Part shown: positions 8,465 to 63,382 of the stretch, piece after piece
Layout: each line of letters starts with the position of its first letter
How positions within the stretch are numbered: position 1 is the stretch's first letter
Assembly: GCA_963677835.2 (NCBI GenBank)
Contig: CAXXUX010000001.1
Span: 1,536,362 to 1,600,361, forward strand
DNA length: 64,000 nt
Source: an uncultured Saccharofermentans sp.
Lineage (GTDB): Bacteria > Bacillota > Clostridia > Saccharofermentanales > UBA5734
Direction: 5' to 3'
The notes under the pieces: generated by a model
What the model was told of the DNA's origin: nothing
Seen by the model: the letters and a program-made list of their open reading frames with translations, nothing else
Databases searched by the model: none
Position numbers and translations under genes: made by a program

Positions 8465-8499
8465 GTTAGGTTATTTGGTTGTACGCTGATGTAACGTGT

Positions 8500-11330: not shown

Positions 11331-11332
11331 CC

Positions 11333-12735: not shown

Positions 12736-12774
12736 TTTCCTGCCTCCATGATCTTCCATCCGGTGATGCTGGCG

Positions 12775-18935: not shown

Positions 18936-18954
18936 AATCAAACGGTAAACGGAT

Positions 18955-42185: not shown

Positions 42186-42215
42186 TTTTAGCTTAAGGAT
42201 CATAGGAGAAGAAAT

Positions 42216-43100: not shown

Positions 43101-43133
43101 CATTAATTTTTGGGGGAGGAGCATGACTTAAAG

Positions 43134-45015: not shown

Positions 45016-45058
45016 ATTTGTCCTCAAGAACATGAAAAAACGCGGGGAGGCGCCTGAA

Positions 45059-46832: not shown

Positions 46833-46875
46833 TCAACATCAGCTAAAAATATATTGTGGTGTAGAGGGAATAAAA

Positions 46876-48399: not shown

Positions 48400-48406
48400 G
48401 TTAATG

Positions 48407-48434
48407 TTGACATTTGACAAGTGGTATATATAAT
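48407..48434 (+). promoter_or_regulatory. predicted consensus promoter TTGACA-16-TATAAT
   Basis: Read directly. It is overlapped by AAGTGGTATATA (48419-48430), and a second AAGTGGTA lies at 48449-48456. Confidence 0.55.
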
Positions 48435-48496
48435 AGAAACATAGGGGTAAGTGGTAAACAATAGAGCTAAAAGGAGTATGTTTTACTGAAGGGAGG

Positions 48497-49228
48497 TTGA
48501 CTGTCATCAGCAAATACGCGAACCTTGTCAATTCAGATCTGACGGAAAAAATCGAAGAATACATCATCGGCAACAATCTTGGCAGCGGTGACAGGCTGCC
48601 ATCTGAGCGTGATTTTTCCCAGATTCTCGACGTCAGCAGAATGACATTAAGAGATTCCATCAAGAAACTGTGCAATACCGGGGTCCTGGAAAATATTCAC
48701 GGCAAGGGGACCTTTGTGGCACAAAAGCGTGTTTGCATTGATGTTTTGAACTTCTACTCCCCCCGAAAACAATCTGGCGAGGACTGCGATGCAGTAAAGT
48801 ATAAACTGATTGGCATAGAAAAAGTTAAAGCGGAAGGGTCTATTGCAAGACATCTTAATGTTGCCGTTGGAATCGATCTCTATCAGATCAAGCGGCTTCG
48901 GAGCGTTTCAAAGCAAAGATTTGCAATTGAAACGACCTATATCCCAATGAGTTTATGCCCCGGCATTGAAAAATTCGACCTTGAATCCAATCACCTTTAC
49001 AAGACCTACAACAATCATTATCACATGAAGCTCACCCATTCAAATATCGACATTAGCATTGGACAGGCAACTTTCGAAGAAGCCGAATGGTTGGGAATTT
49101 CTGAAGGCGGTTATATTTCTGTTGAAAAAAGGACGTCATTCGATAAGCGTGACGTTCCTTGCGAGCATGTCCTGACCGTCTCAAGCGTCAACAATGTCTA
49201 TTATTTTGCCGATCTTGTCGCTAAGTAA
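48497..49228 (+). CDS. GntR-family (HutC/UTRA) transcriptional regulator
   Basis: 243 aa with a TTG start. Motif LPSERDFSQILDVSRMTLRDSIKKL. Confidence 0.8.
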   Translation: MTVISKYANLVNSDLTEKIEEYIIGNNLGSGDRLPSERDFSQILDVSRMTLRDSIKKLCNTGVLENIHGKGTFVAQKRVCIDVLNFYSPRKQSGEDCDAVKYKLIGIEKVKAEGSIARHLNVAVGIDLYQIKRLRSVSKQRFAIETTYIPMSLCPGIEKFDLESNHLYKTYNNHYHMKLTHSNIDISIGQATFEEAEWLGISEGGYISVEKRTSFDKRDVPCEHVLTVSSVNNVYYFADLVAK

Positions 49229-49404
49229 ATTTTGCCTTTCTTTTTAACCTCTCTCGATAAGACAAAAGTATTGTAAAACAAAGAAAATAAGTATTTAAGC
49301 ATCAGCAAGCCACTCAACGGTGTATTTTGTGCTGCTCGAATTTTCTTTTTTAATGAAACTGCCTGTCGCATGAAAATACTGATTATTTGTCGGAGGGAAT
49401 TATT

Positions 49405-50928
49405 ATGGCTGAAAGGGTAACGTTTGAAGAACAAACCGTTTCTGAACAAACAAAAACCACGGTAAAATCCAAACAAAAAATACGTACGGCTATCGGATAC
49501 ATTTTTGTTGCCTTATGCTTTGTTGTTACCGCCTTTTTTGCGCCGGCGGTCGGCTCGGAATATTATGGATTCTGGAGCGCACTCCCGCCAATTTCGATTT
49601 TTGCCTTCATCCTTTTAACCAAGCATATTCTGGAAGGGTTCTTGTGGTCCGGCTTGCTTGCCGTTTTTATCGAATACCACGAAACATTATTCACACAATA
49701 TATCGATGAAACATTTACCTCGGTCTGCGATCCGGATAACTTTTACGTTGTGCTTCTCTTCTTGTTGATCGGCGTCGTTGTCGTTATCTTGAAAAAGAGC
49801 GGCGCAAGCACTTACTTTGCCCGCTGGATATCCAGCAAGGCGAAAAGCAGCAAGACGGTTTTATTCATTACCTATCTGGTAGGAATTGCCCTCTGCGTTG
49901 ACGACTATACTTCTGCTTTGGCAGGAGGCGCGGCGCTATCGCCGGTCAATGACGAATACCACATCCCGCGTGAAATGACAGCTTACGCCCTGAGGGCCTC
50001 GGTCACAACGCCGGCCTGCCTGGCGCCGATCGGCTCATGGGTCATCTGGACCGCGGCGCTGCTCGAGCAAAATGGCGTTGCGACAGAAGGACAAGGCGTA
50101 ATGGTCTATATGACAAAGCTCCTGCCTTATCTGTTCTTCCCGTTTATTGTCTATATTGTCGGCCTATTGGTCATTTTTGGCGTGATCCCCAAGTTCGGCA
50201 AGATGAAGCGCGCTTATGAACGTGTTGCTGCCGGCGGGCCGCCGGCGCCCGTTGTCGAAAAAACGGCTTATGAAGAAGAAGAAATCGAGAAAGTATCTGA
50301 ACCTCGCAAAGGCGTCAATTTGATTCACTTTTTCCTGCCGATCGCCGCGCTGTTCCTGTTTGGCTACCTGTTTGACTGGAACATGGTTTATGGATTGATT
50401 GCCGCCATCTTTACAACCTTCATCTTCTATATCGTCACCAAAGTTTTTTCCGTTTATGACGCGACCAATAGTGTCTTTGAAGGTTTTTCCTATATGACGC
50501 AGCTGGCGATCATGATGGTTTTCGGCCTGACCCTCTGCCGTGTATGCGGCGAGCTGGGCTTCACCGAATATGTGGTCGGATTGACTCAGAATTTCGTTAC
50601 TCCGCAAATGCTTCCATTCATTATCTTCGTTGTCTTCTGCGCAACAGAATTCCTGGTAACCTTCAACTGGACCTTGTACCTGATTGCGATGCCGATCGTG
50701 GTCGCCCTGGCTTCAAGCACCGGCTCCAATATCTTCCTTTGCCTTGGCGCTCTTGTGTCTTCCGGCGTTTTCGGATACTGCCTGGCTTTTTCCTCGGATG
50801 GCGGCATGTGTGCCTGCGGCGCCTGTGGAATCGACATTTACGAACAGAATACGACACAAATGCCATACATGCTGATTTCGATGGGCTTGTCGGCAATCGC
50901 TTACCTGGCCTGCGGATTCATCCTGTAA
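49405..50928 (+). CDS. NhaC-family transporter
   Basis: The ATG at 49405 follows GGAGGG. About 507 aa, polytopic. Clearly alignable with the paralog at 59014-60474. Confidence 0.75.
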   Translation: MAERVTFEEQTVSEQTKTTVKSKQKIRTAIGYIFVALCFVVTAFFAPAVGSEYYGFWSALPPISIFAFILLTKHILEGFLWSGLLAVFIEYHETLFTQYIDETFTSVCDPDNFYVVLLFLLIGVVVVILKKSGASTYFARWISSKAKSSKTVLFITYLVGIALCVDDYTSALAGGAALSPVNDEYHIPREMTAYALRASVTTPACLAPIGSWVIWTAALLEQNGVATEGQGVMVYMTKLLPYLFFPFIVYIVGLLVIFGVIPKFGKMKRAYERVAAGGPPAPVVEKTAYEEEEIEKVSEPRKGVNLIHFFLPIAALFLFGYLFDWNMVYGLIAAIFTTFIFYIVTKVFSVYDATNSVFEGFSYMTQLAIMMVFGLTLCRVCGELGFTEYVVGLTQNFVTPQMLPFIIFVVFCATEFLVTFNWTLYLIAMPIVVALASSTGSNIFLCLGALVSSGVFGYCLAFSSDGGMCACGACGIDIYEQNTTQMPYMLISMGLSAIAYLACGFIL

Positions 50929-51015
50929 AAATATTGAAAGATTGTTTTGCGGCAAAGGGGTAATGGCGGGCGACCTGGCAAAATAAAATCAGTCGACAAT
51001 TAAAGGAGAATGACT

Positions 51016-51852
51016 ATGTCAAAAATCACGATGTCACAGGTTGCAACCAGCAACTTCACCTATCGTCGCTACACTTTTGACTACTTTTTAAAATCAGCCC
51101 AAAAGCTCGGTGTGGAAAACATCGAGCTGAGTGGCTGCCATCCGCACTTTTCGGTTTATGAAGCTTTGCAGTTTGACGTGAAAAGTCTGGCGAAGCAAAT
51201 CAAAGAACACCATCTGACCGTTTCCGCGATTGAACCAGAACAAAACTTCCTCCCGATCAATATCGCTGCACGTGATCAATACTTTCGCGAACAGAGTGTG
51301 AAGCAGCTCGGCTTCTACATTGAAAACGCCCATGAGTTCAACTGCAGCAAGGTCATTATCTATCCAGGCAAAACGTTAATCAATCATCCCCGTTCGGAGG
51401 CCTGGAAATATTCGCGGGACTCGATTCATCAGCTCAGCAAGCTTGCGAAAAAAAATGACGTAACGATTCTTCTGGAAAGTGTATCGGGATTTGTTTCGGA
51501 CTTGATGACGGACTCCAAAACCGTCAAACGGATGATCGATGAAATCGGCGCCGACAATATCGGCTGCTGCGTCAATTCCTCCGCGGCCTTTGCCGCGGGG
51601 GAAACGCTCGAAGACTATTTCAGGCTCTTCGGCAGTAAAATCGGCATGGTTCAGCTCTCCGACAGTACGGCCGACAATGAACAGCTGGTCTGGGGCGACG
51701 GCGAACAAAATCTTGATGTGCATATCAATACCCTGCGCGAATATGGCTATGCCGGGGCTGTGGCCCTGGAACTGTTTATGGAAGAATTGGCTGATGGCGC
51801 CGAAGAAAACTATGCGGCCTGCATTGAATACTTCAAGAAACATATTGATTAG
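51016..51852 (+). CDS. xylose-isomerase-fold TIM-barrel protein (sugar phosphate isomerase/epimerase family)
   Basis: The ATG at 51016 lies 8 nt after AAAGGAG. About 278 aa. Family call by overall pattern (IELSGCHPHF ... ILLESV ... ALELF). Confidence 0.7.
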   Translation: MSKITMSQVATSNFTYRRYTFDYFLKSAQKLGVENIELSGCHPHFSVYEALQFDVKSLAKQIKEHHLTVSAIEPEQNFLPINIAARDQYFREQSVKQLGFYIENAHEFNCSKVIIYPGKTLINHPRSEAWKYSRDSIHQLSKLAKKNDVTILLESVSGFVSDLMTDSKTVKRMIDEIGADNIGCCVNSSAAFAAGETLEDYFRLFGSKIGMVQLSDSTADNEQLVWGDGEQNLDVHINTLREYGYAGAVALELFMEELADGAEENYAACIEYFKKHID

Positions 51853-51862
51853 GAGAACTGAT

Positions 51863-52723
51863 ATGAAACAACTCGATTTTTCCCAATTCGGCATTATGTC
51901 GGTGCAATATCAGCAATACAGCCTTGACTACTGTCTGGACTCCATCGCCTCAAACGGATTTACGTTCATTGACTTTTGGGGAGGCGCTTCGCACTACTGC
52001 GCGTTTGATACGCCTCCCGAAAAACGCTTGCAGCGCGTTTCGAAAATCCGGCGAATGCTGGATGACCGGGGCTTGAAAATGTCGGTCTTTACCGCTGAGC
52101 AAATCTGCCTGTATCCGATCAATGTGGCGTCATCAAATGATTACGTTCGCAAAAACAGCATAGAAATAGTCAAACGCTACCTGGAAGACACCAAGGAGTT
52201 TGGCGCAGATTACTATTTCATGCAGATGGGTTACGGCCTGTTTGACGAAGATATCGATGCCGCCAGGGCCCGTTCGATTGACGCCCTGAAAGAGATGACC
52301 GAATATGCTGAAAAAATAGGCGTCAAAATGGTGATGGAGCAATTGCAATACTATGAATCCAACCTCTGCCACAATCGGAAAACGTTGAAAGACCTGATTG
52401 ACGCGGTCGATTCCCCGTACCTGACGGCCTGCGTCGACTGTGTTGCAGCGGCTGCTGCCGGCGAATCGGTTGAAAGCTATTATGACGTATTCAATGGCGC
52501 GATCAACCATGCCCATCTTGCGGATGGCTGTCCAACCGGCCACCTGGTGCCGGGCGATGGTGAAAACCCGCTCGAAGACTATCTCAGGACTTTTGCCGAA
52601 CATGACTATAAAGGTTCGATTACCCTTGAAATCAACAACCAGATGTATTTCAACGATCCTGACCAGGCGGTTGCCCGGGCGGCGGACTGGCTGAAAAAAT
52701 GCCCGGTCATTGCCGGATCTTAA
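51863..52723 (+). CDS. xylose-isomerase-fold TIM-barrel protein (sugar phosphate isomerase/epimerase family)
   Basis: The ORF track extends to 51539 in the wrong context. The ATG at 51863 follows AGGAG. 286 aa (IDFWGGASHYCAF ... VMEQL ... TLEIN). Confidence 0.7.
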   Translation: MKQLDFSQFGIMSVQYQQYSLDYCLDSIASNGFTFIDFWGGASHYCAFDTPPEKRLQRVSKIRRMLDDRGLKMSVFTAEQICLYPINVASSNDYVRKNSIEIVKRYLEDTKEFGADYYFMQMGYGLFDEDIDAARARSIDALKEMTEYAEKIGVKMVMEQLQYYESNLCHNRKTLKDLIDAVDSPYLTACVDCVAAAAAGESVESYYDVFNGAINHAHLADGCPTGHLVPGDGENPLEDYLRTFAEHDYKGSITLEINNQMYFNDPDQAVARAADWLKKCPVIAGS

Positions 52724-53511
52724 GTTAATTTCTGAAACTGCGGACGCATGTCCGAGTAGATGGCCACATAACCGAAACCGGCATCTTTGATGCAGTTTAT
52801 GGCATCGCCGGCCATAAAGCCGATGGTGTCAAGGCGGTGAGAATCCGTGCCGATCGTCACGATCTCGCCGCCAAGCTCCCAATATCGCCGGAGTATGGTT
52901 TTTATCCGCCCGAAATTTTTTGAAAAACGATTGCTGGCAGTGTTCACTTCGATCCCCTTGCCTTTTTGCACCAGGGTCGTCAGGATGCTGTCGATCTTGT
53001 CCGCCGCGTTTTTATAATCCATCGGAATAGTTTGAAACTGCTCGATTTTGGAAAGATAATCAATATGCCCCAAGACGCTGAAGTGATCAAAATGCTTGAG
53101 GACATAATCGATCTGTTCAAGATATTCTTGAAAGATCTGCTTAAGTCTTGGGGCCGGATAGATCAGGTTATAGGGGTCAACTTGATCATATTCATGGACA
53201 GATAAAATAATGAAGTCAAGTTCAAGACTTTGCAGATACCGTTCGGCATATTTTAGCGTTTGCCGGGCTGCCCCGGCTTCCAGGCCCATTTTTATATCCA
53301 TGTCCGGGAAAAGGCTGCGGGCTTTTTCAATTTCCTTTTGATAGGCCTTAACATCAAGCGGCACAACTGGATCGCCGGAATAGGATTCAAAATCGGCATG
53401 CTCCGTAAAGCAAATTTGATCAAAGCCGAGCCGGCTGCATTCTGCCGCCATATTCAGCAAGGGTTGATCCGAATCATGAGAAAAGGATGAGTGAAGGTGA
53501 TAATCCCACAT
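52720..53511 (-). CDS. PHP-domain phosphatase, histidinol-phosphatase (HisJ) family
   Basis: 263 aa, RBS GGAGAG. N-terminal MWDYHLHSSFSHDS metal-binding motif. Its 3' end overlaps the convergent TIM-barrel gene by 4 nt. Confidence 0.8.
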   Translation of the reverse strand: MWDYHLHSSFSHDSDQPLLNMAAECSRLGFDQICFTEHADFESYSGDPVVPLDVKAYQKEIEKARSLFPDMDIKMGLEAGAARQTLKYAERYLQSLELDFIILSVHEYDQVDPYNLIYPAPRLKQIFQEYLEQIDYVLKHFDHFSVLGHIDYLSKIEQFQTIPMDYKNAADKIDSILTTLVQKGKGIEVNTASNRFSKNFGRIKTILRRYWELGGEIVTIGTDSHRLDTIGFMAGDAINCIKDAGFGYVAIYSDMRPQFQKLT

Positions 53512-53675
53512 GGCTGCTCTCCATCTGCTGCTGGTATAAATTAATTAATTTAACAGAACATCAATCCGACCAGATTAAATACACCAATATTTAACAAAAG
53601 TATACCACTAAATATAAGAAGTTGTCAAGTTATACAAGATGTTTGGGGAATGATTATTGATTTTCAATGAGGTGC

Positions 53676-53704
53676 TTACAAGTTTGTTTATGTTATGGCA
53701 TAAT
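53676..53704 (+). promoter_or_regulatory. predicted promoter TTACAA-17-CATAAT
   Basis: Read directly, 50 nt upstream of the GntR gene start. Confidence 0.4.
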
Positions 53705-53752
53705 ATGGATAATTATATAATTTTACGCCCAGTGAAATGAAAGGGATTGCCG

Positions 53753-54466
53753 ATGGCCAAGAGGGAAGCGCTCTATTTGCAAATCAGCAATATCATACGC
53801 CGCAAAATCGTACATGGTGAATTGTGCTATGGCCAGCGGATTCCATCTGAACACGATTTGGCCGAGCAATTTTCGATCGATCGTAAAACCTTGCGCCGCG
53901 CCATTTCCGTACTCGTCGAAGAAGGCATACTTACGCGAATCCATGGCAAAGGGACCTATATCAACAAACGCCAGGTTTCCTATGATGTGAATGTTGTCGA
54001 CAATTTTGGCCAGATGCTTTTCAAAAGCGGAATCAGGCACACCTGCAGGCTTCTCCACAAAGAAAAGCGCAAAGCCGGCGTAAAGTATGCCAAAATTCTT
54101 GAGATTGGCGAAAATGACGCGATTTACCGCCTGGTGCGCCTGCGGCTGGGGGACGGGGAGCCGATCGCGCTTCAGAACACCTACGTGGCCTATGATCTGG
54201 TCAACAACATCGAAGATGTTGATTTTGAAATGTATTCGCTCTACGACCTGTTTAGCCAGAACGGCATTTATCCAAACCGTGTCAAAGAAAAATTCCTGTT
54301 CGTGGAACTGTCCAACCCGGAAGCAAAAATGCTTAATATGGAGGAAGGCAGCATGGGATTCATGGTCGAGGATGTCACCTATGACCAGAACGACCGGGTT
54401 GTCGAATATACCAAAGCCTTGATCAATAACGACAATATTGTCATCAGCGCCGATTTGGAATATTAG
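53753..54466 (+). CDS. GntR-family (HutC/UTRA) transcriptional regulator
   Basis: The ATG at 53753 follows AAAGGGA. Motif IPSEHDLAEQFSIDRKTLRRAISVL. Confidence 0.8.
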   Translation: MAKREALYLQISNIIRRKIVHGELCYGQRIPSEHDLAEQFSIDRKTLRRAISVLVEEGILTRIHGKGTYINKRQVSYDVNVVDNFGQMLFKSGIRHTCRLLHKEKRKAGVKYAKILEIGENDAIYRLVRLRLGDGEPIALQNTYVAYDLVNNIEDVDFEMYSLYDLFSQNGIYPNRVKEKFLFVELSNPEAKMLNMEEGSMGFMVEDVTYDQNDRVVEYTKALINNDNIVISADLEY

Positions 54467-54482
54467 CTTTTAATGGGCCGGG

Positions 54483-55196
54483 CTATTTCAATTTGGTCGT
54501 CAGGACGATGCGCCTGCTGTTGGTGAAAGCCTGGTTATATTCAATCACTCTCCCGGTTGTGTCATAGGTTATGTCTGAGATCAGGAAAGTGTAGCTATCG
54601 GGTTCCATGTTCAGATAATTGGCTTCTACGGCAGGAATGGCGGCTGCGTTGACCGTCTCTTTGATTTCGCCGATTTGAATGCCGTTTTTCTCCAGAAGGT
54701 CATAAAGAGAATAAATACTGAAATCAATCCCGTCAAAATTCGGGATCAGTCCGTCCAGAATGAAGGTCTTTTCATAAGCGATTGGCTCGTCGTCGCCATA
54801 CCGGATGCGGATCATCTTGTAAAGCTTGGCCTCGCGGTCAATCTGAAAGATCTTGGAAAGCCTGTATCCAGCGGTTTCCTTGTTAAGGGAGATGATCTTG
54901 CTTTTAACCTTGATGCCTTCCTGTTCCAGCAGACGCGTAAAACCGACCAGCTTTTCCATCGAATATTTAATCGCCGGCTTTTTGATAAAAGTGCCTTTGC
55001 CCTGAAGCCGAATCAGCATGTCTTCGTCGACCAGTAAATCCATGGCTTTGCGAATCGTTTTGCGGTCAATGCCATATTGGGCGGAAAGTTCGCGTTCTGA
55101 AGGCAAGGCCTGACCATAAACGAATTCCTCGTTCAGGATCATCTTTCTGATTCTTTCGCAAAATTGAAGATACAGAGGCATTTTCAAGAACGGCAT
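54483..55196 (-). CDS. GntR-family (HutC/UTRA) transcriptional regulator
   Basis: 237 aa. Motif LPSERELSAQYGIDRKTIRKAMDLL. Alternative start at 55181. Confidence 0.8.
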   Translation of the reverse strand: MPFLKMPLYLQFCERIRKMILNEEFVYGQALPSERELSAQYGIDRKTIRKAMDLLVDEDMLIRLQGKGTFIKKPAIKYSMEKLVGFTRLLEQEGIKVKSKIISLNKETAGYRLSKIFQIDREAKLYKMIRIRYGDDEPIAYEKTFILDGLIPNFDGIDFSIYSLYDLLEKNGIQIGEIKETVNAAAIPAVEANYLNMEPDSYTFLISDITYDTTGRVIEYNQAFTNSRRIVLTTKLK

Positions 55197-55230
55197 TCCT
55201 CGCGATCATCAGTGATCAAATTATAATTGA

Positions 55231-55259
55231 ATTATATAGGAAGGCTATGTGTCTGTCAA
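55231..55259 (-). promoter_or_regulatory. predicted consensus promoter TTGACA-17-TATAAT (minus strand)
   Basis: The reverse complement of 55254-55259 is TTGACA and of 55231-55236 is TATAAT. It drives the GntR gene at 54483-55196. Confidence 0.5.
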
Positions 55260-55286
55260 AAACAAACCTCATGGCGATTGTTTTTG
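55257..55286 (-). terminator. A/T-rich hairpin (CAAAAACAA-N12-TTGTTTTTG) directly after the yjbQ-like stop
   Basis: 9-bp arms read directly. The T-rich 3' arm lies on the transcribed strand. Confidence 0.4.
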
Positions 55287-55288
55287 TT

Positions 55289-55717
55289 TCATTCTCCTAT
55301 AATGCACAGGCTGATCGTCCGCTTTTGCGGCCCGTCGAATTCCGCCAGATAGATTTCCTGGGCGCTTCCGGCTTGAAGCTCGCTGTCCAATATGGGAAAG
55401 GCGCAATGGTTGCCGGTCAGGAGCGATTTTAAATGCCCGGTTGGATTTCCGGCCATCGAACCATATGAATGCAGGAAACGGGCATGGAAGTAAATGTCTG
55501 CTTCAGGCACTTGCCGGGTCAGGAAAGCCAGGATGTCCTTTTCAAGACATTCCAGCTTTTCATTAACCAGGATTCCGGTGGTTGTGTGCTTGGTTATCAC
55601 ATAAATGACACCGCGTGAAACGTGGCTTTCAGCAATTGCCGCTTTGATCTTGTCCGAAATCGGCAGCAGCTGATTGTATTTTTCGGTATAGAGAACCAGT
55701 TCCTTATATTCTACCAT
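55289..55717 (-). CDS. YjbQ/UPF0047-family protein (secondary thiamine-phosphate synthase family)
   Basis: The ATG at 55717 follows GGAGA. Motifs VITKHTTTGILVNE and GHLKSLLTG. Confidence 0.75.
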   Translation of the reverse strand: MVEYKELVLYTEKYNQLLPISDKIKAAIAESHVSRGVIYVITKHTTTGILVNEKLECLEKDILAFLTRQVPEADIYFHARFLHSYGSMAGNPTGHLKSLLTGNHCAFPILDSELQAGSAQEIYLAEFDGPQKRTISLCIIGE

Positions 55718-56579
55718 GGACGTCATCTCCATAAACAAATCTGAGGGCGTTTTGCCCGAGGATCATGTCAAAAAAATCTTCTTGCAGGGGCATTTCCCGA
55801 ATGGCCTGCAGCATCCGTATCTGTTCCAGACGAGGTTCGTCAGAACCGAAAATCACCTGGTGCCGGAAAGTCCGCTCCAGCCAGTCCGGTCCCATGTCGG
55901 TCTGGAAGACTTGATGGTAGAAGGCTTTGGGATTGTCGAAATAGAGCAGGGCGGTATCGGCAAAAATATTAGCGTATTTCAGCAGAAGCATGCAGGTATC
56001 GCCAATCCAGGGCCAGCCAAAATGGGCCAGGCAAATTCTTAATTCGGGGAATCGGAAGGCGACTTCTTCGAACCTCAGGGGATGGGCGTATTTGGCCAGG
56101 GTGCCAGGCTCCAGCGACATGCCTGAATGGAAAATGACCGGCTTGCCGAATTTGATGCAAGTGCGGTAAATGGCGTCCATTTGGGGATCGTCCGGATAAA
56201 ACCGCTGTTTGGATGGATGCAGTTTAAGCCCCATCAGCTTCAAGTGGCAAAAGGCATGCTCCAACCTTTCCAGCGCATCCGGCGAACCAGGATCGATGCT
56301 GGCAAAGCCGATAAACCGGTCCGGATACCGGTCAACTAGAAATTTAACCTGCTCATTGCTTCCGACGCAGGCGCCATTGATCGAGGCGAGGTCGAGCGGC
56401 AGCAAGATCATCTTGTCAATGCCGGCATAATCGCACTGGTTGAAGAGTTGCCGGATAGAAATCCGATCGGTCTTGAAAAGCCCCATTGCCTCCTGGTTGG
56501 CTTTCAGCTGTCCATCGTCGAGTCCCGGTTCATCAAGAAAAGCGGCATGCACATGTGCGTCAATAATTTGCTTTTTCAT
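55704..56579 (-). CDS. amidohydrolase-2 (PF04909-like) metal-dependent TIM-barrel hydrolase
   Basis: The ORF track extends to 56807. The ATG at 56579 follows AGGAG. N-terminus MKKQIIDAHVHA, later LAHFGWPW and FGSDEP. Confidence 0.75.
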   Translation of the reverse strand: MKKQIIDAHVHAAFLDEPGLDDGQLKANQEAMGLFKTDRISIRQLFNQCDYAGIDKMILLPLDLASINGACVGSNEQVKFLVDRYPDRFIGFASIDPGSPDALERLEHAFCHLKLMGLKLHPSKQRFYPDDPQMDAIYRTCIKFGKPVIFHSGMSLEPGTLAKYAHPLRFEEVAFRFPELRICLAHFGWPWIGDTCMLLLKYANIFADTALLYFDNPKAFYHQVFQTDMGPDWLERTFRHQVIFGSDEPRLEQIRMLQAIREMPLQEDFFDMILGQNALRFVYGDDVHGRI

Positions 56580-56592
56580 CGGCTTTCTCCTG

Positions 56593-57381
56593 TCAATCGA
56601 TCCATGGCGCAAATGTCCCGACAACCTGTGCGGCCAGTCTGGCGCCGGCTTGCTGCGCTTCCAGGATGCTTTTGCCCTGCATGATCCGATGGATGAAGCC
56701 GGCAATGTAGCTGTCGCCGGCACCGACTGTATTGACAACTTCGGCCGGATAGATGCCAAATGCATGGAAATCGGTTCCGTCCCAGACCAGGCTCCCGGCT
56801 TCGCCAAAAGTCACGACGCATAAGGTGGCGCCCTGCCTGACAATATCTTTCATGAACAATTCGATTTGCGGATCCCTGTTCGGATAGGAGAAAAAAGCAT
56901 AATCGACTACCGGCGCAATTTGCCGGACTAAAGGATCATTTAACTCGGTGGCAAAGTCAAAGCTTATAGCGACGCCGCGTTTGTGCAAGTCGGGCAGGTG
57001 TTCCTGGGCATTGCCCCAAAATGCCGAATGCACCAGATCGTGTTTGGCAGCGAAGTTAATGTCTTCCGCCGAAAATTCAATATCTTTCATGACGCCCTCG
57101 ACATAGTCGCCGTAAGTTCGTTCCCGGTCGATCAGCTGCATGTACGATACGGCGGTTTGCCCCTGGCAAACATGCAGGTGGGAGACGTCCAGGCCCTGGG
57201 CTGTCAAGGTCAAAAGCATCTCCTGCCCGTAGCGGTCATTGCCGGTCGACGAGATGATGGAAGTCTGTATGCCCAGCTTTTGCATATTGACCGCGAAATC
57301 AACAGCATTGCCAGTCATGTAATAACAATTCAAATCGGTATAATAATCAACACAGTTATCGCCAATTGCTGCAATTTTCAT
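56593..57381 (-). CDS. PfkB-family kinase, fructoselysine 6-kinase (FrlD)-like
   Basis: The ATG at 57381 follows AAAGGA. MKIAAIGDNCVDYY and NTVGAGDSYIAGF. Closest in pattern to E. coli FrlD as I recall it. Confidence 0.75.
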   Translation of the reverse strand: MKIAAIGDNCVDYYTDLNCYYMTGNAVDFAVNMQKLGIQTSIISSTGNDRYGQEMLLTLTAQGLDVSHLHVCQGQTAVSYMQLIDRERTYGDYVEGVMKDIEFSAEDINFAAKHDLVHSAFWGNAQEHLPDLHKRGVAISFDFATELNDPLVRQIAPVVDYAFFSYPNRDPQIELFMKDIVRQGATLCVVTFGEAGSLVWDGTDFHAFGIYPAEVVNTVGAGDSYIAGFIHRIMQGKSILEAQQAGARLAAQVVGTFAPWID

Positions 57382-58975
57382 TTGATGTCCTTTCAATCAC
57401 GCTATTTTGACAAGTGTCTTGCCAAATGATTTTGCCATTGAAAATGGTCAGGGAAACCTTGGCCTCAGGCAGCTTGTCGACCGGCATTGAAAAAATGTTC
57501 CGGTCGAGGACTGCAAGGTCCGCCAGCTTGCCGGCTTCGATTGTCCCGAGCGATTTTTCCTGGAAATTGGCGTATTGCCCGCCGATTGTCCAGGCCCGCA
57601 GGCATTCGGCGACGGTTAGCGCCTGGCTTGGATTAACGCCATTTTCAGGTTTTCCATCCCTGAACCGGCGAGATAGGGCGAGATAAGCCGACAAAGGAAT
57701 GTCAGGCGCTGTCAGCGGCAGATCGGTGCCACAGCAGACATTGACGCCCGCAGCCAGCATGTTGCGATAAGGCCAATAGTTCTTGATCCGGTCCATGCCG
57801 ACAAATTCATATCCATAAAAATCTTCCGAGGTGCCAATGCAATCCATGATCTGCATATAATTGACCGCTGTAATCCCGAGCTTGGCCATCCGCTTTAAAT
57901 CATCCGGCTGCACCATTTCCAGGTCGACGATCATATGGCGGGAGTCTTTTGGGCCATTGGCCTCACGGCATTTCTGGAAGATGTCGATCGTTTTTCGGAC
58001 CGCCTGGTCGCCTTCGGCATGCAGGGCGCACCGGTACCCCTGGCGGTCGGCCTCCAGCACGGTCTTTTCCAGGGCGTCATAGTCGATGATCTGTTCGCCG
58101 AAGCTTTCCGGCCGATTGGCATACGGTTCTAGCAGATGGGCGTTCCATTTGGCAATTTCACCGTCAACCATCAGATTGAAGCCCATGAATTGGATTAACG
58201 GGGAGCTGAAACGCTCGCGGCAAGCTCCGGCGTATTCAAAATCGGCCGGCCGGCCTACCGGCTGGGAAACCAGATTGACCCGATGCATCAGCTGCCCTTG
58301 GCTGGCGAGCTCGTGCAAAACATCCGTAAAACCGGAGTAGTCGTCAAAACCGATTTCCTTGATTGCCGTTACCCCGCGTGCCGCAAGAAAATGACTGAAA
58401 CGCCCGTATTCGGCTTTGATAAACTCCCGGTCAGCGAGGAAATCCTGAAAGACTTTGTAGCAGTTTTCCGCAAAAACCGCATTGCCGTTAAAACCATATC
58501 GCCGGATGGCTGCCTGGTTTAACAGGCAGCCATCCCGGTCCGCGGTAAAGCCCAAAACCGGGCGGGATCCAAATTGTTCAAGCAATTCCAGATCTTTCCC
58601 GGCGTTTTCCAGCACAAAACCGGGCAGGTTATGCCCGAAAACCGGTTTGCCGGCGGGCGTCAGGCTGGCTTGCCGGACAAAAAGCTCACAAGCCTCGCTG
58701 ACAGTCCTGGCTGATGCCAGATCAATCCCCAGCTGCGACCACACCTGTCCGGTGAAGAAAACGTGATTGTCGACAAAACCGGGGCAGACAAGCTGTTCGC
58801 CCAAATCAAGGACTGCCGTATGGTCAGCAAGCCAGGGCCCCATTTCTTCAAGAATGCCGACTGCGGCTATGCGGTCGCCGGCAATGGCGACAAAGCCCGG
58901 AAATGGGGCGTCAACCGGATCGGCGCCGGTATAGAGGCAGGTGGAAACCAGGATCAGATCTGCTTTCTGAATCAT
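57356..58975 (-). CDS. amidohydrolase-3 (YtcJ-like) metal-dependent hydrolase
   Basis: The ATG at 58975 follows GAGGAG. About 539 aa. CPGFVDNHVFF (degenerate HxH), ALHAEGD, CCGTDLP. Confidence 0.75.
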   Translation of the reverse strand: MIQKADLILVSTCLYTGADPVDAPFPGFVAIAGDRIAAVGILEEMGPWLADHTAVLDLGEQLVCPGFVDNHVFFTGQVWSQLGIDLASARTVSEACELFVRQASLTPAGKPVFGHNLPGFVLENAGKDLELLEQFGSRPVLGFTADRDGCLLNQAAIRRYGFNGNAVFAENCYKVFQDFLADREFIKAEYGRFSHFLAARGVTAIKEIGFDDYSGFTDVLHELASQGQLMHRVNLVSQPVGRPADFEYAGACRERFSSPLIQFMGFNLMVDGEIAKWNAHLLEPYANRPESFGEQIIDYDALEKTVLEADRQGYRCALHAEGDQAVRKTIDIFQKCREANGPKDSRHMIVDLEMVQPDDLKRMAKLGITAVNYMQIMDCIGTSEDFYGYEFVGMDRIKNYWPYRNMLAAGVNVCCGTDLPLTAPDIPLSAYLALSRRFRDGKPENGVNPSQALTVAECLRAWTIGGQYANFQEKSLGTIEAGKLADLAVLDRNIFSMPVDKLPEAKVSLTIFNGKIIWQDTCQNSVIERTSNENCSNWR

Positions 58976-59013
58976 TTGCAATCTCCTCGATCAATGGCGA
59001 TATTTGAAAATCG

Positions 59014-60474
59014 TCAGAAAATAAAGCCGGCAACCAGGTACATGACTGCCGAGATGGCAAAGGCGCCCACCTGATAAGGCATGCCTGCCAGGTTGTGATC
59101 ATACAGGTCGACGCCGGTCGCCGCAGCCGTGCAAAGGCCGGCATCCGAAGCGAAGCTTGAATTGCTGCCGAAAAGTCCCGCGCAGAACATGGCCGCCAGG
59201 CACAGGTAGGGATTTGCCCCGGTCGCCGCGGCCAGGGCGATAACGGACGGCATGACCATCATGTACAAAGTCCAGTTGAAGGTGACCAGGTATTCTGTGC
59301 CGCAAAACAAAATGAAGATAATGACTGGCAGCAGGTGAGGATTCAGAACGCCGCTGGTGGCGCTGACAACGAATTCCGTGAAGCCCAGCTCGGAAATCAT
59401 GCCGGTCATGGTGAAGCCGATGACCAGCAAGAAAGTCATTGCCATCATGCTGTTGAAACCATCGATCACCATGGTGAAAATCCGGTCGATCTTGAAAATT
59501 CTTTGAATAAAGAACAGGATGCCCGTGACGACGATCGCCAGGCCAAGGCCGTACTGCATGTTGAAATCAAAGTAGATGCACAGTCCGATCATGGAAACGA
59601 TCGGCACGATAAAAGAGATGAGATTGACGCCCTTTCTGGGCTCGACGATTTCCTCCTCCAGTTCGACGTTTTTTTCGCCGATGTCCACGGGGCCTGCCGG
59701 CAAAGCCGGGCCGCCTGCAGAAACCCGTTCATAGGCCTTTTTGATCAGGCCGATTTTCGGCAGCCAGCCCATGCAGAAAAGAAAACCGAACAACAGGCTG
59801 ACAAAGCAGTAAAACATGTAGGGAACGATTTTCATGTACTCGCCTACGCCGGTTCCGCTGGCTGCAAAATTATTGGTTTCAAGGAGGGACGCTCCAAAAA
59901 TGACCCAAGATCCAATGGGAATTATTGACGAAGTATGGACGGCGCTTGAACGGATAATGAATGCGGTTGCTTCCCTTGGAATGCCAAACTGGTCATTCAT
60001 CGGCGAAAGGCTGGCGCCGGTGACAAAGGCGCAGAGGTAGTCGTCCACACTCAACAGCCAGCTCATGATCCAGGTCAATAAAAGCGCAACCTTGGAGCTC
60101 TTGGCTTTTTTGGCGACTTTGCGGGCAAAAAAGGTAGCCGCGCCGCTCATTTTCAAAAAAGTGATCAAAACGCCAAGCAAAAGGAAGACGATGATCAGGT
60201 AGGCGTTGTCGGGATCGGTGATGGTCCCGGCGATCCGGTCGCTGTAAATCAAGTAGAATCCCCAGCGGTATTTGATGAAAACCGCCAGCACGCCAGACCA
60301 GAGAAAACCTTCGATGACGCTTTTGGTTAAGATGATGAAGACGAAGATGGCAACAGCAGGCAGCATGGCCCAGGCTGCATAATAGTCTTGACTTTCGGGC
60401 GCGAATATCGCTGCCGCCGCAAAGCAGGCCAGCATAAAGACGTATCCGATAGTCTTGCGATTAAGAAACTTCAT
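59014..60474 (-). CDS. NhaC-family transporter
   Basis: The ATG at 60474 follows GAGGGGG. About 486 aa, polytopic. Paralog of 49405-50928. Confidence 0.75.
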   Translation of the reverse strand: MKFLNRKTIGYVFMLACFAAAAIFAPESQDYYAAWAMLPAVAIFVFIILTKSVIEGFLWSGVLAVFIKYRWGFYLIYSDRIAGTITDPDNAYLIIVFLLLGVLITFLKMSGAATFFARKVAKKAKSSKVALLLTWIMSWLLSVDDYLCAFVTGASLSPMNDQFGIPREATAFIIRSSAVHTSSIIPIGSWVIFGASLLETNNFAASGTGVGEYMKIVPYMFYCFVSLLFGFLFCMGWLPKIGLIKKAYERVSAGGPALPAGPVDIGEKNVELEEEIVEPRKGVNLISFIVPIVSMIGLCIYFDFNMQYGLGLAIVVTGILFFIQRIFKIDRIFTMVIDGFNSMMAMTFLLVIGFTMTGMISELGFTEFVVSATSGVLNPHLLPVIIFILFCGTEYLVTFNWTLYMMVMPSVIALAAATGANPYLCLAAMFCAGLFGSNSSFASDAGLCTAAATGVDLYDHNLAGMPYQVGAFAISAVMYLVAGFIF

Positions 60475-60487
60475 GAACAAACCCCCT

Positions 60488-61339
60488 CTAATAATGTGTG
60501 CCATAACCGAATGCGCCATCAACCAGACAATTATTGGCGGAAAATTCTGCTGCAGTCAAAAAAGCCTGCTCAATCTTTGTCTGGTTGATGCGGACATTCT
60601 TTTTCCAGCCCTGTTTCAGTAAACTAATTGAAAATGATGTAAAAAATGAATCTCCGGCGCCCATGGTGTCGACGGCCCTGACCAGCCTGACTTCGCCGCT
60701 GTACTGCCTGACGCCGTCGAAAAGGCTTTGCCCTTTGGTCCCCATCGTTGTCAGCACGTATTTCGTGCCAAACGCAGACACCTTTTTTTGAAGCTGGCTA
60801 ATCGCATCGCCGTCCATGCCTTCACAGGAAAATAAGGCCATGTCGATCCAAGGGCAGATCAACTGCAAATAAGCGTCGTTCCGGAATTCTTCTTCAACTG
60901 AGAAATCAAAAGTAATGTTGGCTTTCAAATTCTTGAGCTTTTTGATCTCGGTCTCGACAGAGGCATAGCAACCGCTGTGGATGAGGTCAAAACCTGCCAG
61001 ATAATCAAAGTCGACTGGTTCAAGAAGGTACGGGCCGTGCTTGGTTTCGCGCAGATCGTCGGCGACAAAGACCCGGTCGCCATCGATCAGGTTGACATCA
61101 CAGCGCTCGGTTGTCGTTCCAGGCGCCGTGCGGCAACGGCTGATTGACACGCCCACATCAAGAAGCGCCGATTTGATGCAGTCAGCTTCCCGGTCGTCGC
61201 CAAACACGCCCAGATAGGCTGCTTCGACGCCGGATTTTTTGGCAAAAACGGCAAAATTGACCGCATTTCCGCCAGGGTACATGACTTTTCGGTTGATGTA
61301 ACGATCGACCACATTGTCGCCATAACCTAGTACTTTCAT
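60488..61339 (-). CDS. PfkB-family kinase, fructosamine kinase (FrlD)-like
   Basis: The ATG at 61339 follows GAGAGG. MKVLGYGDNVVDRY...YPGGNAVNFAVFA and DTMGAGDSFFTSF. Confidence 0.75.
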   Translation of the reverse strand: MKVLGYGDNVVDRYINRKVMYPGGNAVNFAVFAKKSGVEAAYLGVFGDDREADCIKSALLDVGVSISRCRTAPGTTTERCDVNLIDGDRVFVADDLRETKHGPYLLEPVDFDYLAGFDLIHSGCYASVETEIKKLKNLKANITFDFSVEEEFRNDAYLQLICPWIDMALFSCEGMDGDAISQLQKKVSAFGTKYVLTTMGTKGQSLFDGVRQYSGEVRLVRAVDTMGAGDSFFTSFSISLLKQGWKKNVRINQTKIEQAFLTAAEFSANNCLVDGAFGYGTHY

Positions 61340-61358
61340 ACTCGAGCCTCTCAATCTA

Positions 61359-62372
61359 TCAGTATTCCACCACTTTGTAATATCGGCGGAAGGTCAGGTC
61401 ATGCCCGGTGGCATCCTGCAGATGCGGATTGATTCTGCCCAATGCGCCGCAGATGACCAGCGGGGAGAACAACGGACGGAATTTCCCGGAAATGCCGGCC
61501 AGTTCATAGTCTTTGGCATCGTAAACAGTCAGTTTCTTGGTATAGCGCTCGCAGAATTTTTGGATGCGGTCACAGACTGCGCGCGATTCATCTTCGCCTT
61601 TGACAACGACCACATGGGTGTTGTCATCAACAAGCTCCAAGGTGCCATGGAAAAAATCTGACGAATGGACCGACTTGGTGCGGATCCATTGCATTTCTTC
61701 CAGAACGCACATCGCATAGCAATAGACTTCACCCCAGGTATTGCCGCCGGCAGTAAAGATGTGGTAATTCTCATCCTTGTATTTGCGGACAAATTCCGCT
61801 GCTTGAACATCGGCCTTCTCCTTGACCGCGGCCATGGCTTCCGGCAATTTTTCAAGATTTTCGACGAAGTCGGCATAATCCTTCATTTCATTGCGCTTGT
61901 GCAGCAAGTAGCCAAAAAACAGGTACTGGATCAAATAGTCGGCATCGGCCGAGTACGGATCCTTGCTGGTATTGACCACAGAATAGTCAACCAGCTTTTC
62001 CAAAGCTGAATTTTCGGTGCCAAGGCCGCAAATCGTCACAGCGCCGCGCGCTTTTGCATAATTGGCGGATTCGATGATTTCTTTGGTGTTGCCGGAATCT
62101 GACATGAAAAAGACAACGGAATTTTCACCAAGATTGCGGTTGCCGGTTGAAATCAGCTCGGCTGCATTTTCGGCATAAACTTTCAGATCCGACATCTTTT
62201 TGAACATATGCATGAATGGCAGCATGATCGCCAGCGTGCCGCCGATGCCGACCAGGAACACGTTCGCCCTTTTTTCCTGCATGACCTGATCGACAATCGT
62301 TTCAATTTCCGATCGTTTTTGCAAGACCAGGTGCATTTTCCTGATGTATTCGTCTTTGAACTGTTTATCCAT
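61359..62372 (-). CDS. SIS-domain protein, fructosamine-6-phosphate deglycase (FrlB)-like
   Basis: 337 aa, RBS AAGGGAG. Motifs VFLVGIGGT and FFMSDSGNT, with C-terminus RRYYKVVEY. Confidence 0.75.
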   Translation of the reverse strand: MDKQFKDEYIRKMHLVLQKRSEIETIVDQVMQEKRANVFLVGIGGTLAIMLPFMHMFKKMSDLKVYAENAAELISTGNRNLGENSVVFFMSDSGNTKEIIESANYAKARGAVTICGLGTENSALEKLVDYSVVNTSKDPYSADADYLIQYLFFGYLLHKRNEMKDYADFVENLEKLPEAMAAVKEKADVQAAEFVRKYKDENYHIFTAGGNTWGEVYCYAMCVLEEMQWIRTKSVHSSDFFHGTLELVDDNTHVVVVKGEDESRAVCDRIQKFCERYTKKLTVYDAKDYELAGISGKFRPLFSPLVICGALGRINPHLQDATGHDLTFRRYYKVVEY

Positions 62373-62535
62373 AGTATTTCTCCCTTTTCGATTTTCAGTG
62401 ATCGTGCATTATCTTCAAGAATCGGCCGGATTCATGGATGATACAAAAAAACGCAAACAAAATAAGCAGGGCGGAAAAGTTTCTCCTGCATGAGGATTGA
62501 TGACAGGGGGCCTTCTATAATTTATCGGTTATCTT

Positions 62536-63258
62536 TCAAGCGCTCTTGATGTCGATTGTATAATTGATGCGCTTGGCGTTGACGATCGTTTTGGTATATT
62601 CTACCGGTTGATTGTCTTTGGCATAGGCAACCGCCTTTTCGACAAATACCGTGTCGTTTTCGAAAAGATCAAGCAACCGGGCTTCTTGCGCAGACGCCCT
62701 GGACAATTTGACTTCGATGTCTTGTTTGGTCATTTGGATGCCGTATTTCTCACCCAGGACCCGATAAAGCGACAACTTCGCAAAATCATGATTTTCCAGC
62801 CCTTTGCACAGCCTGGCGGGAATATGGGAGACTTCCAGCAGAAGATCTTCTCCATCAATGCTGCGAACCCGGGACAAGACGTAGATTGGACTGCCCTGGG
62901 GGATGCTGAGCAATTCGGCAGCGATCCGGTCCGCCTTGGCGACTGTAATACCGATCATTTTGCTTTTGGCAACCTTCCCCTGGGCCAGGACCGAGTCGGA
63001 AAAAGAAATGAAATCCTTCATGTCGATATGGCATTTTTCCGGCGCGATGAAGTTGCCTTTGCCGTGAATAGAGATAATTCGGCCTTCCAGCTGCATCCTG
63101 CCCAGCGCCTCCCGGATTGTTCCCCGGCTGACGCCGCAAAGCAAGGTCAGTTCCCGCTCCGAAGGCAAAGCGTCGTTTGCCTTCAGCTGGTTTAAATCGA
63201 TATGCTCTTCAATTGCGTCAATGACATCTTCGCGAACCAGGTTGTTTTGCTTGGCCAT
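62536..63258 (-). CDS. GntR-family (HutC/UTRA) transcriptional regulator
   Basis: 240 aa, RBS AAGAGG. Motif LPSERELTLLCGVSRGTIREALGRM. Confidence 0.85.
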   Translation of the reverse strand: MAKQNNLVREDVIDAIEEHIDLNQLKANDALPSERELTLLCGVSRGTIREALGRMQLEGRIISIHGKGNFIAPEKCHIDMKDFISFSDSVLAQGKVAKSKMIGITVAKADRIAAELLSIPQGSPIYVLSRVRSIDGEDLLLEVSHIPARLCKGLENHDFAKLSLYRVLGEKYGIQMTKQDIEVKLSRASAQEARLLDLFENDTVFVEKAVAYAKDNQPVEYTKTIVNAKRINYTIDIKSA

Positions 63259-63382
63259 TTGAATACCTCTTACCGGGATTATTTACCGGGACCATTATCC
63301 ATGCGCCGTATACATGATCCACCACTAGATGAAATGAATATACCACACGAAAAATTGAAAATCAACCATTAAATCGAATAAT

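Follow-up and report, generated by a model that had tools for sequence, protein, structure and literature searches.

A fructosamine catabolic operon with apparently undescribed YtcJ-like and PF04909-YjbQ modules in an uncultured Saccharofermentans sp.

Seven genes of an uncultured Saccharofermentans sp., called g1 to g7 here, form what is well supported as one operon for the catabolism of fructosamines (Amadori compounds). They are co-directional open reading frames (ORFs) on the minus strand, at positions 55289-62372 of the 64,000-nucleotide (nt) stretch of contig CAXXUX010000001.1 that we analysed (hereafter the window), behind the GntR/UTRA regulator gene R1 at 62536-63258. This assignment is well supported because none of the four frl-type functions, carrier, kinase, deglycase and regulator, is missing. 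The core function is of the ordinary frl/fra type, and two modules, the amidohydrolase-superfamily gene g4 and the gene pair g6-g7, appear to be undescribed. On balance, we favour a reading in which the operon imports and catabolizes one or several fructosamines, g4 performs a dedicated hydrolytic step, g6 and g7 act together with a g5-type kinase, and the seven genes are the core of a larger island.

To our knowledge, the bacterial routes (frl, fra and gfr) use only a transporter, a kinase or phosphotransferase system (PTS), a deglycase, and an epimerase or asparaginase. Our search of the literature on Amadori/fructosamine catabolism with amidohydrolases or YjbQ found no description of either module; a survey of fructose-asparagine users was outside this search. 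For comparative purposes, a motif-seeded scan of one-genome-per-species contigs was performed and yielded at least 569 relatives of g4, the best 80 of which were analysed with their loci. Among these 80, the best match has 56% identity, and 56 of the loci are well flanked, with at least 6 kb on both sides.

Core genes and layout of the operon

The g1 gene (61359-62372, minus strand) codes for a two-SIS-domain fructosamine-6-phosphate deglycase (PF01380, 58 bits) of the Salmonella FrlB/GfrF type. Its closest solved relatives are 2A3N and 8GLR (Salmonella FrlB), with E-values of ~1e-69 and 35.8% identity. The active-site residues of Salmonella FrlB are S46, S91, S93, T96, E98, E224 and H240 (PMC10285752). 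The alignment of g1 with this enzyme has S91, S93, T96, E98, E226 and H242 in place and T46 for S46, and the catalytic Glu/His pair, E226 and H242, is spaced by 16 residues, as demanded of an FrlB. The protein scores 237 bits against Salmonella FrlB versus 130 against FraB. As it reaches only 82 bits with the E. coli FrlB equivalog model, whose cut-off is 430, and is 25% identical to E. coli FrlB, we consider g1 a homologue of the Salmonella-type FrlB rather than an orthologue of the E. coli protein.

Both kinases are FrlD-like, as proposed in the initial annotation. The g5 protein (56593-57381, minus strand) is a fructoselysine 6-kinase FrlD equivalog that scores 339 bits with NF007321, above the cut-off of 247, and it shares 41% identity with E. 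coli FrlD in a full-length alignment of 258 residues. The g2 protein (60488-61339, minus strand; PfkB, 80 bits) is more diverged. It scores 152.6 bits with the FrlD model, below the same cut-off, and is 32% identical to E. coli FrlD. Kinases of the g2 type directly follow the SIS gene in 25 of 34 cases among the surveyed loci. By homology, g5 and g2 would phosphorylate the sugar at C6.

The presumed fructosamine importer is g3 (59014-60474, minus strand), a secondary carrier of the NhaC family. This is a match at the level of the Pfam family (PF03553, 62.5 bits), the score with the NhaC equivalog TIGR00931 being 22.5 bits for a cut-off of 370, and weak matches to the arginine/ornithine antiporter ArcD and to Tet(35) were also obtained. 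In related loci the g3 slot is filled by an APC or a DcuC/YfcC carrier, and one of these three carrier types is present in 55 of the 56 well-flanked loci. Homology thus suggests that g3 brings the fructosamine into the cell.

Profile searches confirmed every family call made initially for the seven genes (SIS, two PfkB, NhaC, YtcJ type, PF04909 and YjbQ), and all ORFs are present at the outer coordinates first given for them. Those coordinates delimited maximal ORFs, and we re-read the starts from the DNA as ATG codons preceded by Shine-Dalgarno sequences. They are at 62372 for g1, 61339 for g2, 60474 for g3, 58975 for g4, 57381 for g5, 56579 for g6 and 55717 for g7. With these starts, 19 nt separate g1 from g2, 13 nt g2 from g3, 38 nt g3 from g4 and 13 nt g5 from g6; g4 and g5 overlap by 26 nt, and g6 and g7 by 14 nt. 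The tight packing described at first holds, with gaps of up to 38 nt; the g3-g4 gap was 32 nt with the TTG start chosen then. A consensus scan revealed a perfect TTGACA-N17-TATAAT promoter at 55259-55231, after the g7 stop codon, which marks a new transcription unit and shows that the 3' boundary of the operon was correctly placed. Within the operon, we found 10 terminator-like sites versus 10.5 expected from shuffled sequence.

A Lachnospiraceae genome (locus L003) harbours the same eight genes in the same order, with protein identities of 54-70%. As this order is repeated there and the partnerships recur across many loci, the arrangement is not due to chance. A metagenome contig of the same organism, L001, is 99.96% identical to the window, and g1 and g3 are split in it. 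The only differences are six single-base insertions, at window positions 63535, 62452, 62188, 60161, 48209 and 48109; several of them are in homopolymer runs, and two break g1 and g3. For these reasons the splits are most likely assembly errors, and they look like long-read indel errors rather than pseudogenes.

R1 (62536-63258, minus strand) has the Pfam GntR and UTRA domains of the HutC subfamily and is 27% identical to E. coli FrlR. Its domains and its position adjoining the operon are those of a putative FrlR-type regulator, and a GntR gene is found in 49 of the 56 well-flanked loci. A sigma-70-like promoter, predicted by consensus match only, may precede R1 (TTGATT-17-TATATT with a TG, 63337-63365, minus strand). 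The 163-nt spacer between R1 and g1 contains a single candidate operator, of low confidence, which came out of a palindrome scan: the 15-bp palindrome GAATC-N5-GATTC at 62419-62433, which abuts a TTGAAG hexamer. No inverted repeats were detected by a repeat-finder search for an operator. No riboswitch or leader RNA emerged: Rfam gave a chance-level match only, and shuffled sequences fold at least as well as the spacer (z = +1.56). The operon is probably controlled by one or several adjacent GntR/UTRA repressors.

The operon resembles E. coli frlABCDR by its GntR regulator, SIS deglycase and PfkB 6-kinase, by the order of the reactions, kinase then deglycase, and by the presence of FrlC-like genes nearby. 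Proteins of the FrlD, FrlB and FrlR types are present, in contrast with FrlA and an in-operon FrlC. The carrier belongs to the NhaC family, whereas FrlA is of the APC type, and sequence comparison identified no FrlA homologue in the 64-kb window. No FrlC-like gene is found among g1 to g7, those genes lying outside the operon, and g2, g4, g6 and g7 are four genes in excess of the frl set. The setting also differs from that of Salmonella FrlB, which works downstream of a mannose-family PTS that phosphorylates its substrate during uptake; here, judging by homology, soluble PfkB kinases would phosphorylate after uptake by a secondary carrier. Bacillus subtilis frlBONMD and Intestinimonas AF_00949-00955 likewise serve fructosamine use in Firmicutes and encode a kinase and a deglycase. 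Their importers, however, are of the ABC type, and neither YjbQ nor an amidohydrolase-superfamily gene has been reported for them; the word 'amidohydrolase' is absent from the Intestinimonas paper.

The g4 and g6-g7 modules

The g4 protein (57356-58975, minus strand) belongs to the YtcJ type of the amidohydrolase superfamily (Amidohydro_3, PF07969, 202.7 bits). Hereafter, AMH3 designates proteins of the g4 type and AMH2 those of the g6 type. A homology search with g4 returned hundreds of relatives in Bacillota, all of which are named just 'amidohydrolase'. Their genetic environments are constant, as an SIS deglycase homologue and an FrlD-like PfkB kinase are encoded near the g4 relative in all 56 well-flanked loci. 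Furthermore, AMH3 is fused to a PfkB kinase in four independent protein clusters, whose kinase domains are 51-60% identical to g5 and 28-31% identical to g2.

The AMH3 proteins have also diversified along with their partners. The deglycase is FraB-like in 23 loci (35-50% identity to the solved Salmonella FraB) and is then paired with DcuC; it is Salmonella-FrlB-like in 34 loci, paired with NhaC or APC, and an E. coli FrlB orthologue in seven loci (57-60% identity), paired with APC. In the leaf order of a neighbour-joining, midpoint-rooted AMH3 tree, read without support values, three groups match the deglycase type and the carrier type (NhaC, DcuC and APC). The g4 protein of the window falls in the NhaC/FrlB clade, and the FraB-like partners are in the DcuC clade. 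A compact form of the locus, found in Klebsiella, Paenibacillus and Bacillus, consists of a FraB-like SIS protein, an FrlD-like kinase, AMH3, a DcuC/YfcC carrier and a GntR regulator. From co-localization, fusion and co-diversification, we infer that g4 is an integral member of the pathway and specific for a substrate class.

The metal site of g4 is unusual. At the HxH position (strand 1) g4 reads D-N-H71-V-F73, compared with D-S-H-L-H in the solved Pyrococcus proteins, and the strand-4 motif of its subfamily is G-F-N-L-M-V-D-G, with N267 in g4, compared with the carboxy-lysine motif GVKLFVDG in the solved relatives. Thus, HxH and the strand-4 Lys of the canonical binuclear ligand set are replaced, and H319, H347 and D418 are present. 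These substitutions are invariant or subfamily-wide. In an alignment of 19 g4 relatives (A1), the subfamily-specific K206, H347 of strand 6 and D418 of strand 8 are invariant; H319 of strand 5 is kept by most members and is T or C in those of Paenibacillus/Neobacillus, which retain the canonical Lys. We consider the canonical binuclear site of g4 to be degenerate because the second His of HxH and the carboxy-Lys are both replaced.

The AlphaFold model of g4 has a mean predicted local distance difference test score (pLDDT) of 91, and its only close solved structures are 3igh and 3icj, two uncharacterized Pyrococcus proteins with template modelling scores of 0.72-0.81. The C-terminal tail of 19-20 residues (57356-57415), which overlaps the g5 start by 26 nt, is unconserved and has pLDDT values below 50. 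Roughly residues 94-168, an inserted subdomain with an otherwise invariant C150, are missing from two of the fusion clusters and from a set of relatives that are 437 residues long. The g4 sequence shows no signal peptide, which indicates a cytoplasmic protein.

The second module starts with g6 (55704-56579, minus strand), a TIM-barrel metalloenzyme of family PF04909 (Amidohydro_2, 96.6 bits). It carries H9, H11, H151, H186, D208 and D247, of which the first five are conserved in most relatives; D247, the strand-8 Asp, is Asn in many. In three Absiella/Amedibacillus relatives (P0161, P0173 and P0195) that are ~55% identical to g6, HxH is N-V-S or H-V-S and E157 is Arg. Judging by such sequences, some family members may do without the metal site. 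The g6 model (pLDDT, 88.6) best matches the uncharacterized structures 3irs and 3cjp, followed by the LigJ hydratase, LigW, ACMSD and resorcylate decarboxylases, and it is not close to amidases or lactonases. The name 'amidohydrolase' is thus a Pfam label only for g6, and the model makes amide hydrolysis by this protein doubtful.

Next to it, g7 (55289-55717, minus strand) belongs to the YjbQ/UPF0047 family (TIGR00149, 91.3 bits for a cut-off of 67.75; PF01894, 95.5 bits) and keeps the family-invariant H44-T-T-T, N52-E53, C57, H78, H95 and K97. Its nine solved homologues, including 2p6c, 1ve0, 1xbf and 1vmh, are all uncharacterized. The 14-nt overlap with g6 suggests translational coupling. 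A metagenome scan seeded with g6 relatives collected 64 loci, 54 with room for a next gene and 24 well flanked. YjbQ directly follows AMH2 in 53 of the 54, and the pair is usually beside a g5-type kinase. In the 24 well-flanked loci, we found an FrlD-like kinase in 18, an SIS gene in 17, an FrlC-fold gene in 19 and AMH3 in only seven. With frl-type genes this frequent and AMH3 in seven of 24, the AMH2-YjbQ pair is best described as an independent module repeatedly embedded in frl-like loci. The second kinase and YjbQ were initially thought to have no counterpart in any described fructosamine locus. They are indeed absent from fra, but they are no orphans, as an FrlD-type kinase, PF04909 and YjbQ form a conserved block.

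NCBIfam labels g7 a 'secondary thiamin-phosphate synthase', an activity of YjbQ that has been called non-physiological in the literature. This role seems improbable here. The window has canonical thiamin genes for ThiC, ThiM and ThiE within 17628-20389, and with ThiE itself encoded at 19730-20389, g7 is probably not needed for that reaction. Another lead comes from E. coli, in which a pdxB mutant is rescued by overexpressed yjbQ, php and hisB via the same route, a serendipitous pathway. The rescue is reminiscent of the window, where YjbQ is paired with an amidohydrolase-superfamily protein and a PHP phosphatase. In E. coli K-12 (L146, 3504935-3512344), the uncharacterized php cluster yhfS-yhfZ adjoins and converges with frlABCDR. 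As the activities of YjbQ, Php and HisB are promiscuous and the phosphotriesterase-like Php has no detectable sequence similarity to g4 or g6, we regard this as a lead and not as homology. Besides php, the yhfS-yhfZ cluster includes genes for aminotransferase-like, mutase-like and PLP-binding proteins, and it may likewise extend a fructosamine locus in a way that is still unexplored.

Candidate reactions and competing explanations

Characterized members of PF07969, namely NfdA and the taurine-specific metallo bile salt hydrolases (mBSHs), cleave N-acyl-amine amides (PMC13081988). In the reading that we favour, g4 would hydrolyse a C-N bond (amide, peptide or lactam) of a derivatized fructosamine in the cytoplasm, giving a substrate for the FrlD-type kinase. 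Its role would be functionally analogous, not homologous, to that of FraE. Taken as a specific claim, amide, peptide or lactam hydrolysis by g4 has a real but minority chance of being correct. To judge by their context, g6 and g7 may cooperate, perhaps in a complex, and together with the g5-type kinase they would use a ketosamine or its 6-phosphate as substrate; amide hydrolysis is unlikely to be their chemistry. The initial annotation had proposed a fra-like logic and a convergent system for amide-, lactam- or peptide-containing glycation products. What stands of it is the fra-like logic of a fructosamine operon with an extra, non-homologous enzyme step at g4. As to the chemistry, amide hydrolysis is a proposal for g4 and is doubtful for g6.

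Several observations weigh against this reading. Lacking two canonical metal ligands, with F73 for His and N267 for the carboxy-Lys, g4 may not act as a hydrolase of the conventional kind. Function cannot be transferred from solved structures for g4, g6 and g7, as sequence and fold searches alike gave uncharacterized structural-genomics entries as their best matches, and close relatives of the three proteins offer no established substrate or activity. The co-diversification of g4, deglycase and carrier could result from whole clusters being inherited as units. The carriers at these loci are all amino-acid-sized secondary transporters, which argues against large peptides, though not against substrates of dipeptide size. 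Lastly, it is by position that the operon is linked to R1, as the R1-g1 spacer has no promoter above the scan threshold and the palindrome at 62419-62433 is specific to the window, no conserved operator having emerged from the comparison with L003.

The strongest of the other explanations, which we consider possible but rather improbable, is that g4, g6-g7 or both act on the sugar part. They would isomerize, epimerize, dehydrate or otherwise convert ketosamines or their 6-phosphates, for instance by channelling Heyns products, or Amadori compounds of the psicose, tagatose or pentulose type, towards FrlB, or they would deglycate by enolization/elimination. The amidohydrolase superfamily has non-hydrolytic members such as uronate isomerase, and the degenerate binuclear site of g4 is in line with such a role. 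So are the hydratases and decarboxylases, rather than amidases, that are the nearest characterized structural relatives of g6, the replacement of its catalytic Asp by Asn in many relatives and the loss of HxH in some. The clusters are also rich in genes for sugar-directed enzymes, namely FrlC-fold proteins, FGGY, BtpA and phosphatases. Nevertheless, the AMH3 clades track the types of deglycase and carrier, the proteins expected to read the amino-acid part, and the characterized PF07969 enzymes cited above act on C-N bonds. Moreover, the minimal loci of Klebsiella and Paenibacillus keep AMH3 without any other sugar-modifying gene.

It is unlikely that g4 is an analogue of FraE that deamidates fructose-asparagine or fructose-glutamine to the acid form, which would then be phosphorylated and deglycated. 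The Salmonella fra locus consists of fraR and fraBDAE, FraE being a periplasmic asparaginase and FraA a Dcu-type transporter (PMC4072780). Like the operon, it combines a GntR regulator and a secondary carrier with an SIS deglycase and a PfkB kinase, and it has a further, hydrolytic enzyme for substrate preparation. The resemblance is closest for the DcuC-clade loci of g4 relatives, whose gene sets match fra almost one for one, with AMH3 replacing the asparaginase: 21 of the 23 loci that pair AMH3 with a FraB-like deglycase have a DcuC/YfcC-type carrier and a GntR gene. Some Klebsiella isolates and clostridia have been reported to use fructose-asparagine (PMC10100877). The operon of the window differs from this pattern. 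Its carrier is NhaC, not Dcu. Its FrlB-like deglycase, the place of g4 in the separate NhaC/FrlB clade and the FrlD equivalog g5 all point to lysine-type substrates. The extra enzyme is an amidohydrolase-superfamily TIM barrel that is cytoplasmic by sequence, in contrast with the periplasmic FraE, and fra has no second kinase, PF04909 gene or YjbQ. Family searches of g1 to g7 identified no asparaginase or Dcu-family gene; the amidohydrolases and the transporter (PF07969 for g4, PF03553 for g3) are, as first noted, non-homologous to FraE and FraA. With an FrlB-like deglycase and neither an asparaginase nor a Dcu carrier, the operon is not a fra orthologue. Fructose-asparagine is not the favoured substrate here, given the deglycase scores and the clade of g4.

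An amino-sugar pathway, with g4 as a NagA-like deacylase acting on an N-acyl amino-sugar phosphate, g1 as a NagB-II/AgaS-like deaminase-isomerase and the PfkB proteins as amino-sugar kinases, is very unlikely. In its favour, g1 also matches NagB-II and the GlmS isomerase domain, with 56 bits each, and E. coli NagA works with a single metal and without HxH. However, g1 scores 237 bits against FrlB and 27-48 bits against solved GlmS and NagB-type chains, g5 exceeds the FrlD equivalog cut-off, FrlC-like and FrlA-like genes recur in the clusters, and no NagA model matched g4. We rejected this possibility on the relative scores.

The least probable explanation makes g4 an mBSH, or a general N-acyl-amine amidase of another kind, with no relation to the sugar genes around it. 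YtcJ/NfdA-like amidases, including the mBSHs of gut Firmicutes, share with g4 the fold, the Pfam family PF07969, the closest solved structures 3ICJ (the reference structure for the mBSHs) and 3IGH, and the kind of host. According to a 2026 preprint, the mBSHs are taurine-specific, retain the canonical ligands of the metal site and come from genomes that also encode taurine catabolism (PMC13081988). Their marks are the taurine-binding Ser144, Gln290, Asn337 and His393 (Beduini enzyme numbering) and at least 40% identity to the Turicibacter enzyme (PMC13081988). The mBSHs were filtered on the canonical metal ligands, including the carboxy-lysine, whereas the g4 subfamily has Phe for the second His, Asn for the carboxy-lysine, an invariant K206 and a fructosamine context. 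Genomes of mBSH producers are enriched for taurine catabolism genes, compared with frl-type genes in 56 of 56 AMH3 loci, and AMH3 fusions to an FrlD-type kinase exist. Membership of g4 in the mBSHs was rejected on the metal ligands and the genomic context.

The surrounding island and its significance

When all ORFs around the g4 relatives in the 80 loci were clustered de novo, several families proved recurrent: AP_endonuc_2 (FrlC fold) in 48 loci, APC permeases in 36, FGGY in 22, and BtpA and DcuC in 21 each. Cof-type HAD phosphatases, esterases and polar-amino-acid ABC systems also recur near g4 relatives. The window genes at 46020-53511 represent the same conserved set. Thus, the functional unit is larger than the seven genes first delineated, and the island extends from 46 to 63 kb of the window. 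In one related locus (L007), twelve island families are colinear on one strand.

On the plus strand, the island comprises a BtpA/SgcQ-family gene (46020-46832; Pfam/NCBIfam) and a gene for an FGGY pentulokinase-like kinase (~46879-48399), a pair that recurs in related loci, followed by a second NhaC-family carrier gene (49387-50928; 47% identical to g3) and two FrlC-like AP_endonuc_2 genes of the sugar epimerase fold by Pfam (51010-51852 and 51860-52723). The best NCBIfam match of the latter two is fructoselysine 3-epimerase, with 86 and 146 bits, below the cut-off, and they are 21% and 27% identical to E. coli FrlC. A PHP-domain (Pfam) phosphoesterase is encoded at 52720-53511 on the minus strand; in L003, L007, L031 and L078, Cof-type HAD sugar phosphatases (Hydrolase_3, clusters c20 and c28) hold its slot. 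As the island adds FrlC-like epimerases, a second carrier, BtpA-FGGY and a phosphatase, it suggests that several related ketosamines are handled.

Three other GntR/UTRA regulators, assigned by their Pfam domains, are encoded at 54483-55196 (minus strand; 30% identical to FrlR, with the perfect sigma-70 promoter at 55259-55231 as its own), 53747-54466 (plus strand) and 48497-49228 (plus strand). With R1, there are thus four such regulators within 15 kb (48497-63258), and just 16 nt separate the convergent pair at 53747-54466 and 54483-55196. Related loci typically have their GntR genes in pairs; in APC-type loci, e.g. L027 and L043, they flank an FrlD-like kinase.

A second fructosamine locus is present at 3329-9389. 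Two permeases (3329-5161) and an ABC binding protein (5205-6587) are encoded there together with an FrlD-like kinase (6563-7444; 187 bits) and a FraB-like SIS deglycase (7466-8464; 46% identical to Salmonella FraB), and a GntR/UTRA regulator gene (8625-9389) lies in divergent orientation. This canonical locus at 3.3-9.4 kb is of the ABC-transporter type, like the clusters of Bacillus subtilis and Intestinimonas. The genome therefore encodes two or more Amadori pathways, and their deglycases differ in type. Beside it, the 9416-14403 stretch codes for a DAO-family FAD oxidoreductase (9416-10768), a protein with [2Fe-2S] and sarcosine-oxidase-A3 domains (10557-11330), a Pyr_redox_2 flavoprotein (11333-12430) and an aldehyde dehydrogenase (12775-14403), a set that resembles amine oxidoreductases of the opine/sarcosine-oxidase type.

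Another sugar locus, at 41301-45999, harbours the best FrlC match of the window (41301-42185; 40% identical to E. coli FrlC), an ORF without a Pfam match (42216-43100), a PfkB kinase gene (43110-44120) and a gene for a DHDPS-family lyase (44017-45015). Its last ORF, a PfkB gene at 45289-45999, covers only profile positions 74-297 and may be N-terminally truncated. At the edge of the window are an ORF with an NAGPA (phosphodiester glycosidase) domain (434-1420) and an MFS transporter gene (1896-3275).

Cooked food and decaying plant matter are rich in Amadori compounds, which shape the gut microbiota and whose catabolism in Salmonella is a drug target. The two modules described here recur beside Amadori pathways in well over 100 genomes and metagenome contigs of bacteria; the loci that carry them form a large set in Firmicutes, with a few more in enterobacteria. 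Tentatively, they may represent two unrecognized ketosamine modules: a class of YtcJ-like fructosamine enzymes with a degenerate metal site, whose three clades would serve different glycated substrates, and a two-protein enzyme made of PF04909 and YjbQ. If so, the YtcJ-like module would extend the Maillard products usable by gut and soil Firmicutes beyond free fructoselysine and fructose-asparagine, and conversion of a ketosamine or its 6-phosphate by PF04909-YjbQ would be the first physiological function for UPF0047/YjbQ. Both modules are experimentally accessible. Establishing their functions would show which extra glycated nutrients bacteria use, assign a role to a divergent amidohydrolase subfamily and perhaps to YjbQ, and improve the annotation of hundreds of gut genomes in which such genes are now labelled 'amidohydrolase family protein'.

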